Shown in pieces: positions 3,011-21,966 of a stretch of DNA of 64,000 nt; position 1 is the stretch's first letter, and every line of letters begins with the position of its first letter. Source of the DNA: a virus (lineage: Duplodnaviria > Caudoviricetes); IMG/VR virus record IMGVR_UViG_3300025372_000639, positions 32,001 to 96,000 of that record, one strand, 5' to 3'. The position numbers were made by a program, and so were the translations under genes. The notes beneath the pieces were generated by a model that was not told the DNA's origin, ran no database searches, and was given only the letters and a program-made list of their open reading frames with translations.

Positions 3011-3131
3011 GCCGCTGTCGTCTAATGGTAGGACACCTTATAAAAGGGTGACTCTGTATAGAGTACGTTCAGCAATTTTCTTAATCCATGCCAAGGGGGT
3101 TATCTAGGTTCGAATCCTAGCGGCGGCACCA
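3011..3131 (+). ncRNA. 121-nt tRNA-like RNA with about 45-nt insertion in anticodon arm carrying GTTCAGCAA
   Basis: GCCGCTG/CGGCGGC-ACCA, normal D- and T-arms, expanded anticodon region. Confidence 0.75.
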
Positions 3132-9362: not shown

Positions 9363-9394
9363 GGAATGGTCCCATAATGGTATTGGAGCGGATT
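9363..9394 (+). pseudogene. 5' half of a Ser-type tRNA truncated after U33
   Basis: GGAATGG-TC-CCATAATGGTATTGG-A-GCGGA-TT, then nuclease leader. Confidence 0.65.
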
Positions 9395-9418
9395 AACGCA
9401 AAAATGCTAAATATTTGT

Positions 9419-9997
9419 ATGAAAGCAAAATACGATTGGGAATTCATTCAGTCAGAATATGACAACGGTATGTCGCATAGTCAGCTATATGTCACTTACG
9501 GAGTATCTCCTGGGGCTATACGAATGGCTATTAAACGAGGAGTCTTTAAATCAAGAAACAGAAGTGATGCGGGAAATCTGCATAACTTAACTAAAGCGCC
9601 CGTAAAACATTCTGACGAGTTTAAAGAAACGCAGAGAAAACGAATTATCTCAAGATACGAATCAGGTTGGATGCCCAAGTCAGGGCGATGCAAAAAATAT
9701 AAGCATATCTCGCCCATTGCAGGTGAAGTTTTGTTAGATGGGACTTGGGAACTTGCAGTGGCTAAGTGGTTAGATGAAATGAACTACAACTGGAAACGAA
9801 ACACAAAACGATTCCAGTATGTAAATTTGAAGAACAAAATAAGTCATTACACTCCTGACTTTTGGGTAGAAGAACTAAACGGATACTTAGAGGTCAAGGG
9901 GTATGAGACAGAATTAGACCGTTGTAAATGGTCTCAATTTGTTGACCCGTTAACCGTGTGGAAACGCAACGAGTTAATAGAAATGAAAATAATATAG
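9419..9997 (+). CDS. PD-(D/E)XK homing-type endonuclease
   Basis: YTPDF...YLEVKG motif; N-terminal HTH/NUMOD-like segment (HSDEFK). Confidence 0.8.
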   Translation: MKAKYDWEFIQSEYDNGMSHSQLYVTYGVSPGAIRMAIKRGVFKSRNRSDAGNLHNLTKAPVKHSDEFKETQRKRIISRYESGWMPKSGRCKKYKHISPIAGEVLLDGTWELAVAKWLDEMNYNWKRNTKRFQYVNLKNKISHYTPDFWVEELNGYLEVKGYETELDRCKWSQFVDPLTVWKRNELIEMKII

Positions 9998-10086
9998 TGA
10001 GTTGGATGAGTGGCTTAAATCGGCACCCTGCTAAGGTGTTTCTCTATTAATATGGGACGTGGGTTCGAATCCCACACTCACTGCCA
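9996..10086 (+). tRNA. tRNA-Ser(GCU)
   Basis: loop CTGCTAA, long variable arm, GCCA; overlaps the nuclease stop codon. Confidence 0.92.
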
Positions 10087-16060: not shown

Positions 16061-16083
16061 GCGAGTGTGGTGAAATAGGTAGA
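16061..16083 (+). pseudogene. 5' fragment of disrupted Leu-type tRNA
   Basis: GCGAGTG-TG-GTGAAATAGGTAGA; acceptor strand pairs with CACTCGC at 16703-16709. Confidence 0.75.
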
Positions 16084-16100
16084 ATGATAAATAACATTAT

Positions 16101-16589
16101 ATGTTTACTATCTATAAAACTACAAATAAACTTAACGGACGATACTACATTGGTGTAACTAATGGTAGAAATAAATCGTACAAGGGATCAGGTACAGCGT
16201 TAAAAACAGCTATTAAGAAGTACGGTGGTAATAACTTTATTACTGAAACTTTAGAAGTGTTTGATAACGAAGAAGACATGTTCAACAGAGAGGCAGAAAT
16301 AGTCAATGAAGACTTCGTCGCCAATCCGTTAACTTATAATATGAAGTTAGGCGGCAGAGGAGGACGAGGGTCTACTAAAACCGATATACACAAAGCAAAT
16401 ATATCAAAGTCTATCTTAAAGAAGAAAGAAGAAGGTACACTTGTAAGTAACGGTGGCAGAAAACTTAAAATGTCTGTAGAAGAAATATCGAAGTTAGTTG
16501 ATACATTTGGAATAGTAGGAGCGGCTGCTCATGTAAATGAACCGTACAATACTTTCAGAAGTCGATACTATACTGCTAAAAAGAAATAA
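16101..16589 (+). CDS. GIY-YIG homing endonuclease (Seg-like)
   Basis: TIYKTTN...YYIG...YKGSG...E...YN...GG. Confidence 0.9.
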   Translation: MFTIYKTTNKLNGRYYIGVTNGRNKSYKGSGTALKTAIKKYGGNNFITETLEVFDNEEDMFNREAEIVNEDFVANPLTYNMKLGGRGGRGSTKTDIHKANISKSILKKKEEGTLVSNGGRKLKMSVEEISKLVDTFGIVGAAAHVNEPYNTFRSRYYTAKKK

Positions 16590-16590
16590 T

Positions 16591-16675
16591 GCTCCGATGA
16601 TGAAATAGGTAACCATAGCAGACTTAAAATCTGCCGCTTAACGGCTTCCCGGTTCGATTCCGGGTCGGAGCACCA
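16591..16675 (+). tRNA. tRNA-Leu(UAA)
   Basis: loop CTTAAAA, long variable arm, ACCA. Confidence 0.93.
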
Positions 16676-16687
16676 AGCATTTGCGAA

Positions 16688-16713
16688 CGGTTCGATTCCG
16701 GCCACTCGCACCA
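16688..16713 (+). pseudogene. 3' fragment of disrupted Leu-type tRNA
   Basis: CGG-TTCGATT-CCGGC-CACTCGC-ACCA. Confidence 0.75.
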
Positions 16714-16719
16714 AATACT

Positions 16720-16803
16720 GGAGTAGAAGCATCAATGGTGATGCAGCGGTCTGTAACACCGCCGCCTCTGGCACGCCCGGTTCGATCCCAGGATACTCCA
16801 CCA
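16720..16803 (+). tRNA. tRNA-Tyr(GUA)
   Basis: loop CTGTAAC, long variable arm, ACCA. Confidence 0.85.
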
Positions 16804-19249: not shown

Positions 19250-19929
19250 TAAAGTTTTTTAAGTACAGATTTTGAAAAATCAATATTAGCCTGGATACCA
19301 GGATGTGCAAGATCTCTTGCTAGGTCTTGATAATGAATATCCTCTACATTAACATACAAAAATTTAATATTGAGCAAATTACATAATTGTGCAATGGCTA
19401 ACCTATTTTTTACTTTAAGTAGTGTAGCATTGTACTTGTTTGATAACCAAGTGTTATAAAATTCAGGAAGTTCGGATGATATATTTGCAATAGATCCTTC
19501 TGAATCAAATATTTCTATTCTATGATCGTATGTTTGGCAAAATACAACTACCTTAGGTTTAATTCGTTCTAACCAAGAGTTAGCCAATCTAAAGGCTGTG
19601 TCATTTGATGAACCGCCTATACCTAAATTATAACAGGCAAGATTTAATTCAGCTGATACTAAACTTGCCCAGGTTGCTTCTAACGGTATTCCTATACCAG
19701 CAGTTATGCTACAACCTAAAAATACAATAGACGGGTCGTTTGTAAATTCATTACATCGAAAACCATGGCTGTTAAATTTATAGGTAAAGTTAGAATCAAT
19801 CCAATTATATTTTTCAAGTAGTTCTTTTTTGTTATTGAGATTTTCTTTATATAACTTTTCAGTGTCCATAGGAAGCCAATATAATTCTTTGTTGGCAAGG
19901 TCAATGTAAGGGTTATGGTCAATGTTCAT
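19249..19929 (-). CDS. SGNH-hydrolase-like protein
   Basis: NSHGFR, FLGCSITAGIG, NLGIGGSSN, ARDLAHPG. Confidence 0.65.
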   Translation of the reverse strand: MNIDHNPYIDLANKELYWLPMDTEKLYKENLNNKKELLEKYNWIDSNFTYKFNSHGFRCNEFTNDPSIVFLGCSITAGIGIPLEATWASLVSAELNLACYNLGIGGSSNDTAFRLANSWLERIKPKVVVFCQTYDHRIEIFDSEGSIANISSELPEFYNTWLSNKYNATLLKVKNRLAIAQLCNLLNIKFLYVNVEDIHYQDLARDLAHPGIQANIDFSKSVLKKL

Positions 19930-19970
19930 AAAAATATTTATACGGTACTTTTGACCATAAATAGTTTCAC

Positions 19971-20044
19971 GCGGAGTTAGTTTAATGGTAGAACGAGAGC
20001 CTTCCAAGCTCACGGCAGGAGTTCGATTCTCCTACCCCGCTCCA
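19971..20044 (+). tRNA. tRNA-Gly(UCC)
   Basis: loop CTTCCAA, TCCA. Confidence 0.9.
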
Positions 20045-20050
20045 AATTTT

Positions 20051-20126
20051 GCATCCTTAACTCAGTTGGTAGAGTTCCGCCTTTACACGGCGGCTGTCGG
20101 GAGTTCGAGTCTCTCAGGATGCACCA
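20051..20126 (+). tRNA. tRNA-Val(UAC)
   Basis: loop TTTACAC, ACCA. Confidence 0.92.
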
Positions 20127-20133
20127 GTTTAAT

Positions 20134-20169
20134 CGGTGTGTAGCTCAGCCTGGTAGAGCTCCTGGTTTG
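20134..20169 (+). pseudogene. 5' half of tRNA-Pro broken in the anticodon
   Basis: CGGTGTGTAGCTCAGCCTGGTAGAGCTCCTGGTTTG followed by non-tRNA sequence. Confidence 0.8.
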
Positions 20170-20269
20170 ACGTTGTGCTGATTTTAAATAACAATGGTCG
20201 TCAATAATGCGGTAATAAATAAGTGTTATTGGTCCTGTAAGGATAGATAGTTGTGCCCTAATTTTATTT

Positions 20270-20288
20270 CGGACATTAGCGCAGTCTG
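20270..20288 (+). pseudogene. second 5' fragment of a Pro-type tRNA
   Basis: CGGACAT-TA-GCGCAGTCTG, typical tRNA-Pro start. Confidence 0.6.
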
Positions 20289-20331
20289 ATTGAGAAAATC
20301 TCGTTTTTGTATCGCTATACTAAATAGTTAT

Positions 20332-20814
20332 ATGAAAAACAGAATAACAAAACCTGGATTAATAGCAATGAATCGCAAGATAGGTTGCGTACATTGTTCG
20401 AAAAAAACTACAATAGGTAATATAAAGAAACATGAAAAATCATGTTATTTAAATCCTACTAATGTAGTAGAGTGTTTAGTATGTAGTAAGCCAATAAAGA
20501 ACTATAAAGAATCAAAAGGTACTTGTAGTCGTAGTTGCGCCAATAAACACTTTAGAAGTGGTGAAGACAATGGTAACTGGAAAGGTGAAAACTACCAATC
20601 AATTTGTTTCCTTTATCACGAAAAAAAGTGCATAGTATGCGGCGAGGATAAGATTGTAGCAGTTCATCATTATGATCATAATCATGAGAACAATGATCCT
20701 AACAATTTAGTTCCGCTGTGTCCTACACATCATAGTTATGTACATAGTCGTTATGCTATTGAAGTACAACCTACAATAGATGAGTATGTTAAGCAATTTC
20801 TCCGTATGGCGTAA
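20332..20814 (+). CDS. HNH endonuclease
   Basis: CSRSC, NGNWKG, CIVCG...VHHYDHN..NN...NLVPLCPTHH. Confidence 0.88.
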   Translation: MKNRITKPGLIAMNRKIGCVHCSKKTTIGNIKKHEKSCYLNPTNVVECLVCSKPIKNYKESKGTCSRSCANKHFRSGEDNGNWKGENYQSICFLYHEKKCIVCGEDKIVAVHHYDHNHENNDPNNLVPLCPTHHSYVHSRYAIEVQPTIDEYVKQFLRMA

Positions 20815-20875
20815 CCTGGTAGCGTCCATGCTTTGGGAGCATGTGGTGAAGGTTCAAATCCTTCTATGGAGACCA
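20800..20875 (+). tRNA. tRNA-Pro(UGG)
   Basis: loop TTTGGGA, ACCA; first 15 nt overlap the HNH ORF end. Confidence 0.9.
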
Positions 20876-20879
20876 GTTT

Positions 20880-20953
20880 GGGGGATTGATGTAATAGTAG
20901 CCTGGGACCTTTGCAAGCTTCAATCCCCGGTTCGAGTCCTGTCACCTCCACCA
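20880..20953 (+). tRNA. degenerate tRNA-Ala(UGC)
   Basis: G3:U70, loop TTTGCAA, several stem mismatches. Confidence 0.6.
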
Positions 20954-21006
20954 AGATCACCATTACACACGGTGTACAATAGGATAAGTAGTGTGTAAAG
21001 AATTTA

Positions 21007-21080
21007 CGCGGGGAGGGTGGTCACCACACCGGTCTCATAAGCCAGGTGCATCGGCAGTTCGAATCTGTCCCCCGCATCCA
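21007..21080 (+). tRNA. initiator-like tRNA-Met(CAU) with short D-arm
   Basis: C1:A72 mismatch, CGCGGGG start, loop CTCATAA. Confidence 0.7.
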
Positions 21081-21099
21081 TTTTATCAGTCTATATAAC

Positions 21100-21966
21100 A
21101 TGTTAATTTATGTAATCAAGGGTCCGTCAAAATTAATACCCGATCAAGAATTTAGCATGTTAAAAGAAAGTTTTAACAAAAAAGGTATTCATTGTATAGA
21201 CTTTCGTATAGAAGATTTAAATCTTGAAATTATCGACTCAAAACTACTGATCAACGGAGGAAGCACTCCTTTACCCGATTTAGTATTAATACGTAATCCT
21301 ATTTTATTTAAAAAAGATATAAAAAAATTTGAAGACGTTGGCATTCCGTGCGTTAATTCGAGCACTGCTATTCAAAATAGTAGAATGAAATTAGACGCCG
21401 CAAATATATTAAACGATCATCAAGTACCAGTTCCTAAAACAATACCGTTTACTGAAAATTTAAATGACATTGTATCAAGTATTGGATTTCCTTTTATTAT
21501 AAAACCGTACCCTAGTTCATTAGGATTAGATGTTTGGTTATGCAGGAATGAAGAAGATTTTTTTAAATTTCTACCAAATGCAAATAAAATATCTTCAGGA
21601 CAAAAATGGTTGGTTCAAGAATTTATAGAACACCGATATAAAGAAGTGGTTAGGTCTTTTGTAATAGATCACAAAGTAGTATTTGCTTTGCATAAAACTT
21701 ACTCGCCCGAAGATGTATTTGTCAACACATCAATACTGAACAGAAAATTTTATCCTATCACTGATGACCTTATAAATATTTCTATAAAAACAACCAAGGC
21801 ATTAAATATCGAAATAGCTGGTATTGATTTATTGTATGACAAAGACGGTATGAAAGTATGTGAGGTAAATTGTTCTCCATTCTTTATACGTGCAGTTGAT
21901 ACACATCCTGCTCTAAATGTAGCAGATATTATTGTTGATTATGTATCAGATCGATATTTAAAATAA
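21100..21966 (+). CDS. RimK-like ATP-grasp ligase
   Basis: VPVPKT, GFPFIIKP, LVQEFI, AGIDLL...VCEVN.SP. Confidence 0.8.
   Translation: MLIYVIKGPSKLIPDQEFSMLKESFNKKGIHCIDFRIEDLNLEIIDSKLLINGGSTPLPDLVLIRNPILFKKDIKKFEDVGIPCVNSSTAIQNSRMKLDAANILNDHQVPVPKTIPFTENLNDIVSSIGFPFIIKPYPSSLGLDVWLCRNEEDFFKFLPNANKISSGQKWLVQEFIEHRYKEVVRSFVIDHKVVFALHKTYSPEDVFVNTSILNRKFYPITDDLINISIKTTKALNIEIAGIDLLYDKDGMKVCEVNCSPFFIRAVDTHPALNVADIIVDYVSDRYLK

Follow-up and report, generated by a model that had tools for sequence, protein, structure and literature searches.

How does the tRNA array of a phage come to contain, next to each other, two broken tRNA-Pro genes, a nuclease gene and a complete tRNA-Pro gene that shares its first nucleotides with the end of the nuclease gene? 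This arrangement is found in the stretch of viral DNA analysed here, which is 64,000 nt long and is referred to as the window; coordinates are those of the window unless a relative is named. The virus record to which the window belongs comprises 128,309 bases at a completeness rating of 31%, and the virus is therefore probably a giant phage. The whole record carries 40 tRNA genes, 23 of them in the window. An earlier note, written from the letters of the sequence, had pointed out two tRNA-Pro stumps, an HNH open reading frame and an overlapping tRNA-Pro, and all four were found where it had placed them. From the comparisons described below we consider it likely that 20289-20875 is a mobile cassette, consisting of a leader, the gene of a free-standing HNH homing endonuclease and an immune cargo tRNA-Pro(UGG).

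The left neighbour of the locus is a tRNA-Val(UAC) gene (20051-20126; ARAGORN, Rfam 63.6 bits), which lies on the plus strand like all features of the locus. The order of tRNA-Val followed by tRNA-Pro is common to the window and the loci L029, L033, and L086. Stump 1 (20134-20169) comprises positions 1-36 of a tRNA-Pro with the 5' end CGGTGTG and agrees with intact tRNA-Pro(UGG) in 36 of 36 positions (E 2e-15). Thirty intact viral copies (L014-L043) were found with 32 letters of stump 1 plus two added letters that complete the anticodon. The alignments to all 30 copies end exactly at 20169, the gene being broken after U34 G35. Stump 2 (20270-20288) corresponds to tRNA-Pro positions 1-19, has the 5' end CGGACAT and is identical in 19 of 19 positions to the intact tRNA-Pro of L046 (E 2.8e-5). 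Its D-loop type recurs in the stumps of L010, L012, L013, L055, L056, and L057. Stump 2 forms the left border of the HNH cassette and is what remains of another resident tRNA-Pro gene.

The 100 nt between the two stumps (20170-20269) had been described in the earlier note as unrelated sequence. This description has to be corrected, since the spacer is identical in 98 of 100 positions to a spacer of L086 that precedes an intact tRNA-Pro, and it is listed here as the conserved leader of the second resident tRNA-Pro. Besides L086, no match to the spacer was found among the DNA compared, and it contains no nuclease remnant. A structured RNA in this region was considered and rejected (folding z = 0.04).

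The gene between stump 2 and the complete tRNA-Pro (20332-20814, start codon ATG, with an in-frame TTG upstream at 20290) encodes an HNH endonuclease of 160 aa. The protein matches phrog_1271 ('HNH endonuclease') at E 2.9e-13, and nine of the 11 PHROG families listed for it are annotated as HNH endonuclease; the Pfam matches to HNH_2 (18 bits) and HNH_3 (16 bits) are both below the cut-offs. HNH families are its only matches in Pfam and PHROG, and a GIY-YIG domain was not found there. Among nine HNH homologues the residues H113, N120, N121, N125, and H134 are invariant, and so are the cysteines C100, C103, and C130 and likewise C48, C51, C65, and C69, i.e. Cys pairs of the zinc-binding kind are present. 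The AlphaFold2 model of the protein is poor (mean pLDDT 57.4, pTM 0.40), and the sole match among solved structures is a weak one to the HNH domain of IscB (E 0.14). Nine pairwise comparisons over 156 codons gave dN/dS values of 0.06-0.08, from which it follows that the protein is maintained by selection. The reading frame is open in all 10 loci checked.

Upstream of the gene lies the cassette leader (20289-20331), which is conserved together with the nuclease gene and follows every stump in the relatives. The homology of L005-L011 to the window begins at 20254-20290. A promoter function of the leader is not supported: an ATAAATA-like word is present in it, yet the window contains only 16 copies of WATAAATA where 20.6 are expected. 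Scans for sigma-70 promoters and terminators gave no more than expected by chance.

The complete tRNA-Pro(UGG) downstream of the nuclease gene (20800-20875, 5' end CTCCGTA) was called by ARAGORN and scores 58.3 bits with Rfam, where the cut-off is 29. It overlaps the HNH reading frame by 15 nt: the last four HNH codons and the TAA are tRNA positions 1-15, the stop codon occupying positions 13-15. The corresponding cargo tRNAs of eight relatives reach 42.3-60.7 bits against the same cut-off, and that of L056 is identical to the cargo of the window. Compensatory double changes were found in 15 of the 21 stem pairs in an alignment of 12 tRNA-Pro genes. By this comparative measure the cargo is a sound tRNA whose cloverleaf has been kept by compensatory changes.

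To the right of the cargo follows a tRNA-Ala(UGC)-like chimera (20880-20953). Its 5' 38 nt are those of the tRNA-Ala of L020 and L086 and the remainder stems from other alleles; the switch falls in the anticodon loop, and the stems contain mismatches. No tRNA is called here by ARAGORN or by the Rfam tRNA model. The chimera is probably dead, and possibly it is the right-hand scar of a conversion. Several other tRNA-like sequences of the array are worth recording. A tRNA-Met(CAU)-like gene with a reduced D-arm (21007-21080) is 94.6% identical to one in L010; it reaches only 20 bits with Rfam and is called by ARAGORN at relaxed threshold only. The latter is also true for a tRNA-Tyr(GUA) (16720-16803), which is absent from the Rfam list at gathering score. 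Positions 2816-2900 match the Rfam tRNA-Sec model with 50.2 bits (cut-off 47) and have an anticodon loop like that of a Ser(UGA)-type class II tRNA. When its intron option is used, ARAGORN reports a 'tRNA-SeC(tca)' at 3011-3131 that contains an insert of 27 nt.

A protein-guided scan of viral contigs yielded nine loci (L005-L013) with HNH proteins 78-91% identical to that of the window, and a scan of metagenome contigs yielded 34 loci. In all 10 loci of the first set (the window and L005-L013) the HNH reading frame terminates within a tRNA-Pro(UGG), with TAA at tRNA positions 13-15 in eight and TAG at positions 8-10 in two. Likewise, all 11 metagenome loci with at least 70% identity and with downstream DNA have an overlapping tRNA-Pro(UGG), the overlaps being 10, 15 or 25 nt long. 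Together these are 21 loci, with the reservation that at least two of the metagenome loci are contigs already in the viral collection; L068 was excluded as it ends too early. That the overlap was kept in 21 of 21 loci is consistent with the suggestion of the earlier note that it locks nuclease and cargo together.

The left border is equally regular. A CGG-type 5' stump of tRNA-Pro stands just before the leader in 10 of 10 loci (the window and L005-L013) and also in L054-L057. No stump was found within 130 nt upstream in L058 and L066, which have the same sequence, and three further loci have no upstream DNA. The cassette of L005-L009 is 87-88% identical to the window over 20276-20820 and the flanks do not align; stumps and upstream neighbours vary between loci with the same cassette. 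In the stumps of the D-loop type the part adjoining the cassette is common to them and the acceptor strands differ, a pattern that would fit crossovers within the tRNA half.

Six of these relatives (L005, L006, L007, L008, L010, and L013) also contain a 3' stump after the cargo, made up of T-loop, acceptor strand and CCA. L056 retains both stumps as well. In all seven loci the acceptor strand of the 3' stump is complementary to the 5' stump of its own locus. A similar 3' stump is present in L059 and L064, for which there is no upstream DNA with a 5' stump to compare it with. A 3' stump is absent in the window, L009, L011, and L012. More distant HNH homologues (52-69% identical) are situated just before, or overlap, genes for tRNA-Asn, tRNA-Met, tRNA-Leu or tRNA-Ala.

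Two further elements were observed in the neighbourhood of these arrays. One is a conserved element about 150 nt long with CCACCA at its end, present in L005 (3548-3700 of that contig), L008 (3521-3676), and L086 (reverse strand, about 1680-1830); it follows the cargo tRNA-Pro in L005-L008 and tRNA-Ala in L086, and has no counterpart in the window and none in Rfam. A GOLLD RNA stands beside the tRNA arrays of L011 (1288-1751) and L086 (2401-2864, minus strand), with 197 and 207 bits, respectively; none was found in the window at gathering score.

Close relatives in which the gene is present or absent at the same site were found in two pairs. The flanks of L008 and L051 are 94% identical on both sides, and L051 has an intact tRNA-Pro at 2160-2237 of its contig. 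In L008 a 739-nt insert composed of leader, HNH gene, cargo and a 156-nt tail replaces 14 nt of this tRNA-Pro. The insert starts after tRNA position 40, where the anticodon loop ends, and reaches to the T-loop, positions 41-54 being lost. For the window itself the empty site is provided by L086, in which an intact tRNA-Pro takes the place of the window's stump 2, HNH gene and cargo. The order in L086 is tRNA-Gly(UCC), tRNA-Val(UAC), a short divergent sequence ending in CCTTGTTTG, the 100-nt spacer, the intact tRNA-Pro, GTTT and tRNA-Ala(UGC). Shared with the window are the tRNA-Gly and tRNA-Val genes, the spacer, the 5' part of tRNA-Ala and the downstream spacers; the intact tRNA-Pro of L086 (CGGTGTG) is a different allele from stump 2 of the window (CGGACAT). 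No HNH homologue is encoded in the 38.9-kb fragment of L086. A search for empty sites via the downstream ATP-grasp gene found no relatives, and an exact search with the L006-type stump returned only the three known filled loci. The proposal of the earlier note that an HNH gene invaded a tRNA-Pro and brought a replacement copy along is thus strongly supported, by the two pairs of filled and empty sites and by the same layout in every close relative examined.

We compared 11 distinct cargo tRNAs with eight resident sequences (four intact genes and four long stumps). The only positions that separate the two groups are 2 and 71, where the residents have G2:C71 and the cargos U2:A71 or C2:G71. Between the cargo of L013 and the intact resident gene of L086, for instance, this pair and two loop bases are the sole differences, and all three intact tRNA-Pro genes of the window's phage have U2. 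The 30 loci L014-L043 carry one tRNA-Pro(UGG) in two forms that differ only at 2:71, with C:G in 18, G:C in 11 and a mixed pair in one (L032, G2 opposite G71). Fourteen records with intact tRNA-Pro genes of these kinds contain no HNH homologue, and three of the 14 are 98-100% complete. As C2:G71 is present in these three genomes, the allele is not tied to carriage of the nuclease. Furthermore, the 5' ends of the cargos are inherited together with the nuclease, and the split at 2:71 therefore does not represent 21 independent events. Pair 2:71 is a candidate for the immunity mark of the cassette. Since base 2 lies inside the nuclease reading frame, the overlap would tie nuclease and immunity together.

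We considered whether the locus could instead be one tRNA-Pro gene with a large HNH-encoding intron, the stump being the 5' exon and splicing restoring the tRNA. Group I introns of bacterial tRNA genes sit in the anticodon loop, where the break is found here too, and both halves of the split gene remain in relatives. Nevertheless, with Rfam no intron family was detected in 19900-21200 at E values up to 10, the window is without a 3' half that matches either stump, and where both halves exist the 14 nt of tRNA positions 41-54 are missing. In addition, the downstream tRNA pairs with itself and not with the stump, so we give the intron practically no chance. On similar grounds (no intron family, 14 missing tRNA nucleotides, an ORF that stands alone) we rejected that the HNH gene belongs to an intron or intein; an integrase-type insertion was also rejected. 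Slightly less remote, and still very improbable, is that duplicated tRNA-Pro genes simply decayed to stumps as the array changed rapidly, and that the HNH gene is a bystander. In favour of this, the array does contain other debris and chimeric tRNAs, and three HNH-free complete genomes have the C2:G71 allele. However, decay is at odds with the order of stump, leader, HNH gene and cargo in every close relative examined amid unrelated flanks, with the existence of empty sites that have intact genes, and with the 3' stumps matching their own 5' stumps.

The origin of stump 1 is a separate matter. The two stumps had been interpreted in the earlier note as successive rounds of invasion at one tRNA. 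The junction of stump 1 (TTTG joined to ACGTTG) is common to the window and L086. As L086 has this junction and the spacer, yet an intact tRNA-Pro and no HNH gene, the event that produced stump 1 predates the arrival of the HNH gene. Two separate events at one locus are therefore supported; for the first of them no nuclease is known, and it may or may not have been an invasion. We see a real possibility, somewhat short of an even chance, that the cassette is what we propose and that stump 1 has another source, namely an unrelated deletion or illegitimate join, or self-cutting of an additional resident tRNA-Pro that was then repaired inaccurately. This would agree with the mere 100 nt between the stumps, which hold no nuclease remnant and, L086 aside, match none of the DNA compared, and with the same junction in L086, whose fragment has no HNH gene. 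It agrees less well with the break after G35, which is within 3 nt of the cassette junction of L005-L009. Moreover, spacer and tRNA start are 98% identical between the window and L086 and the adjacent tRNA-Val only about 75%, which hints that the unit of spacer and tRNA itself moved recently.

Returning to the mobile cassette, the insertion polymorphism, the conservation of the cassette, the selection on the ORF, the soundness of the cargo tRNA and the split at 2:71 are all borne out at the level of the sequences compared. The steps by which the cassette would spread can be pictured as follows. In a mixed infection the nuclease would cut or nick the ordinary tRNA-Pro (5' end CGG, G2:C71) of a cassette-free phage, and repair would then use the donor genome as template for the cassette, with both conserved tRNA halves acting as homology arms. 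The resident gene would remain as a 5' stump and in many relatives as a 3' stump in addition. The cargo, being respelled at 2:71, would supply tRNA-Pro and escape cutting. In the window, the target tRNA-Pro would already have stood 100 nt behind the older stump 1. The earlier note had also proposed that 5' processing of the cargo tRNA could remove the stop codon of the nuclease, an idea that is not new (see T4 segB below). A search for sequencing runs gave 14, each with at most 0.07 of the sampled words and in the form of contigs, in which RNA ends are not visible.

The window contains a second cassette with a tRNA-Leu (16061-16713, plus strand). It consists of a 5' stump (16061-16083), a gene (16101-16589), a cargo tRNA-Leu(UAA) (16591-16675), and a 3' stump (16683-16713). 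The gene product matches phrog_314 ('homing endonuclease', E 9e-36) and its Pfam match to GIY-YIG is weak. The two stumps are complementary to each other, and an intact gene of the resident tRNA-Leu type is present in 54 of 56 other viral loci. Here the stop codon of the GIY-YIG-like gene ends 1 nt before the cargo. The region thus shows the same break-and-replace design with an unrelated nuclease.

Other nuclease genes of the window and other tRNA-Leu loci add some observations. L087 and L134 have a resident-type tRNA-Leu(UAA) with a long insert after CTT in the anticodon loop, the position at which the group I intron of tRNA-Leu genes classically sits; at gathering score the insert was not identified as such an intron by Rfam. 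The region 9363-10086 is possibly a third cassette. Its endonuclease gene (9377-9997, phrog_15137) begins inside a 25-nt 5' stump of a tRNA (9363-9387) that resembles an odd class II tRNA of L020, and its TAG stop overlaps the first 2 nt of a tRNA-Ser(GCU) at 9996. A second HNH gene (2047-2622, phrog_14736), 31% identical to the one at the tRNA-Pro, lies between tRNA-Lys and tRNA-Met; T-arm-like debris follows it, and no clear stump was found there.

A wider and more tentative idea is that the HNH genes constitute a natural family of 'break and replace' elements, whose logic is close to that of engineered cleave-and-rescue gene drives. The idea has five parts, and it is rather doubtful that all of them hold together. 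A conserved tRNA gene would serve both as target and as a pair of portable homology arms, permitting jumps between unrelated phages. Immunity would be gained by flipping pair 2:71, and with the 5' base of the pair inside the nuclease frame recombination could not separate nuclease and immunity. The family would have radiated onto Asn, Met, Leu, and Ala isoacceptors. The RNase P cut at the 5' end of the cargo would leave a nuclease mRNA without stop codon and thereby keep the enzyme scarce. Finally, elements of this kind would be a main force that builds, duplicates and breaks the tRNA arrays of giant phages.

In large phages tRNA genes number in the dozens, and there is no settled view of how such arrays are assembled and renewed. 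Our results suggest that selfish nucleases do much of this turnover by destroying a resident gene, installing their own copy and leaving stumps, chimeras and duplicates behind. With a single discriminating base pair, 2:71, the distinction between self and target allows a sharp and cheap test. The conserved overlap of stop codon and tRNA is a clean system for asking whether a toxic nuclease is held in check by the processing of a tRNA. As a tool, a compact nuclease for a defined tRNA gene, together with a ready-made immune allele, could also be of use.

HNH homologues of 40-54% identity occur in Xanthomonas phage XbC2, Serratia phage BF, Erwinia phage pEa_SNUABM_12, and Vibrio phage nt-1. Those of 47-54% in named jumbo phages adjoin paired tRNA-Pro genes, and in XbC2, BF, and pEa_SNUABM_12 the nuclease gene comes after the pair. 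In contrast to the cassette described here, the nuclease of XbC2 and BF is situated downstream of intact tRNA-Pro genes and not between stump and cargo; their records annotate it only as HNH endonuclease or hypothetical protein. The homologue of Vibrio phage nt-1 overlaps a tRNA-Ala by 42 nt. Our search of the literature outside subscription journals found tRNA-cluster nucleases (SegB and the T5 enzymes) but no account of a tRNA gene that is split and accompanied by a respelled spare with the same identity. The cassette is a variant of the known habit of such nuclease genes to live in phage tRNA clusters.

F-TflI, F-TflII, and F-TflIV of phage T5 are HNH enzymes. As in our locus, their reading frames lie in a tRNA gene cluster, and their expression is thought to be lowered by processing of the tRNA transcripts; the account given in PMC2330249 describes no layout of stump plus cargo for them. 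In the intronless homing and marker exclusion of the T4 seg and mob genes, as reported in PMC2330249 and PMC2790892, a nuclease gene has as its neighbour a version of its target that is resistant, and co-infecting phages have their sensitive alleles converted. The HNH gene likewise adjoins a putatively resistant version of its own target. According to these reports, however, a sensitive protein gene is overwritten by co-conversion, whereas the target here, a tRNA gene, is broken without being removed, and an entire spare gene is inserted.

The closest comparison is with SegB of T4. SegB is described as a free-standing GIY-YIG homing endonuclease in the tRNA cluster that cuts tRNA genes at the T-loop and drives the inheritance of itself and of nearby tRNA genes (PMC2330249), and the co-location of SegB and tRNA genes is reported to be widespread (PMC13096335). 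As with SegB in T4 and T6, the HNH cassette has a free-standing nuclease gene inside a phage tRNA array. The removal of a stop codon by tRNA processing is already part of the published view of segB: its ORF ends at tRNA-Arg, and a maturation cut between the last codon and the stop codon was proposed as a brake on expression (PMC2330249). The differences begin with the enzyme, which is an HNH nuclease here and not a GIY-YIG nuclease. As far as described, SegB recognises a T-loop shared by many tRNAs and replaces the region by co-conversion, whereas here the gene of one isoacceptor is split and its stumps remain. Unlike in SegB, the nuclease travels together with a complete tRNA gene that has the same identity and is respelled at 2:71, the two overlapping by 10-25 nt. 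The HNH element would work like SegB but comes from another catalytic family, and what it adds is the split target, the same-identity spare respelled at 2:71 and the conserved overlap.
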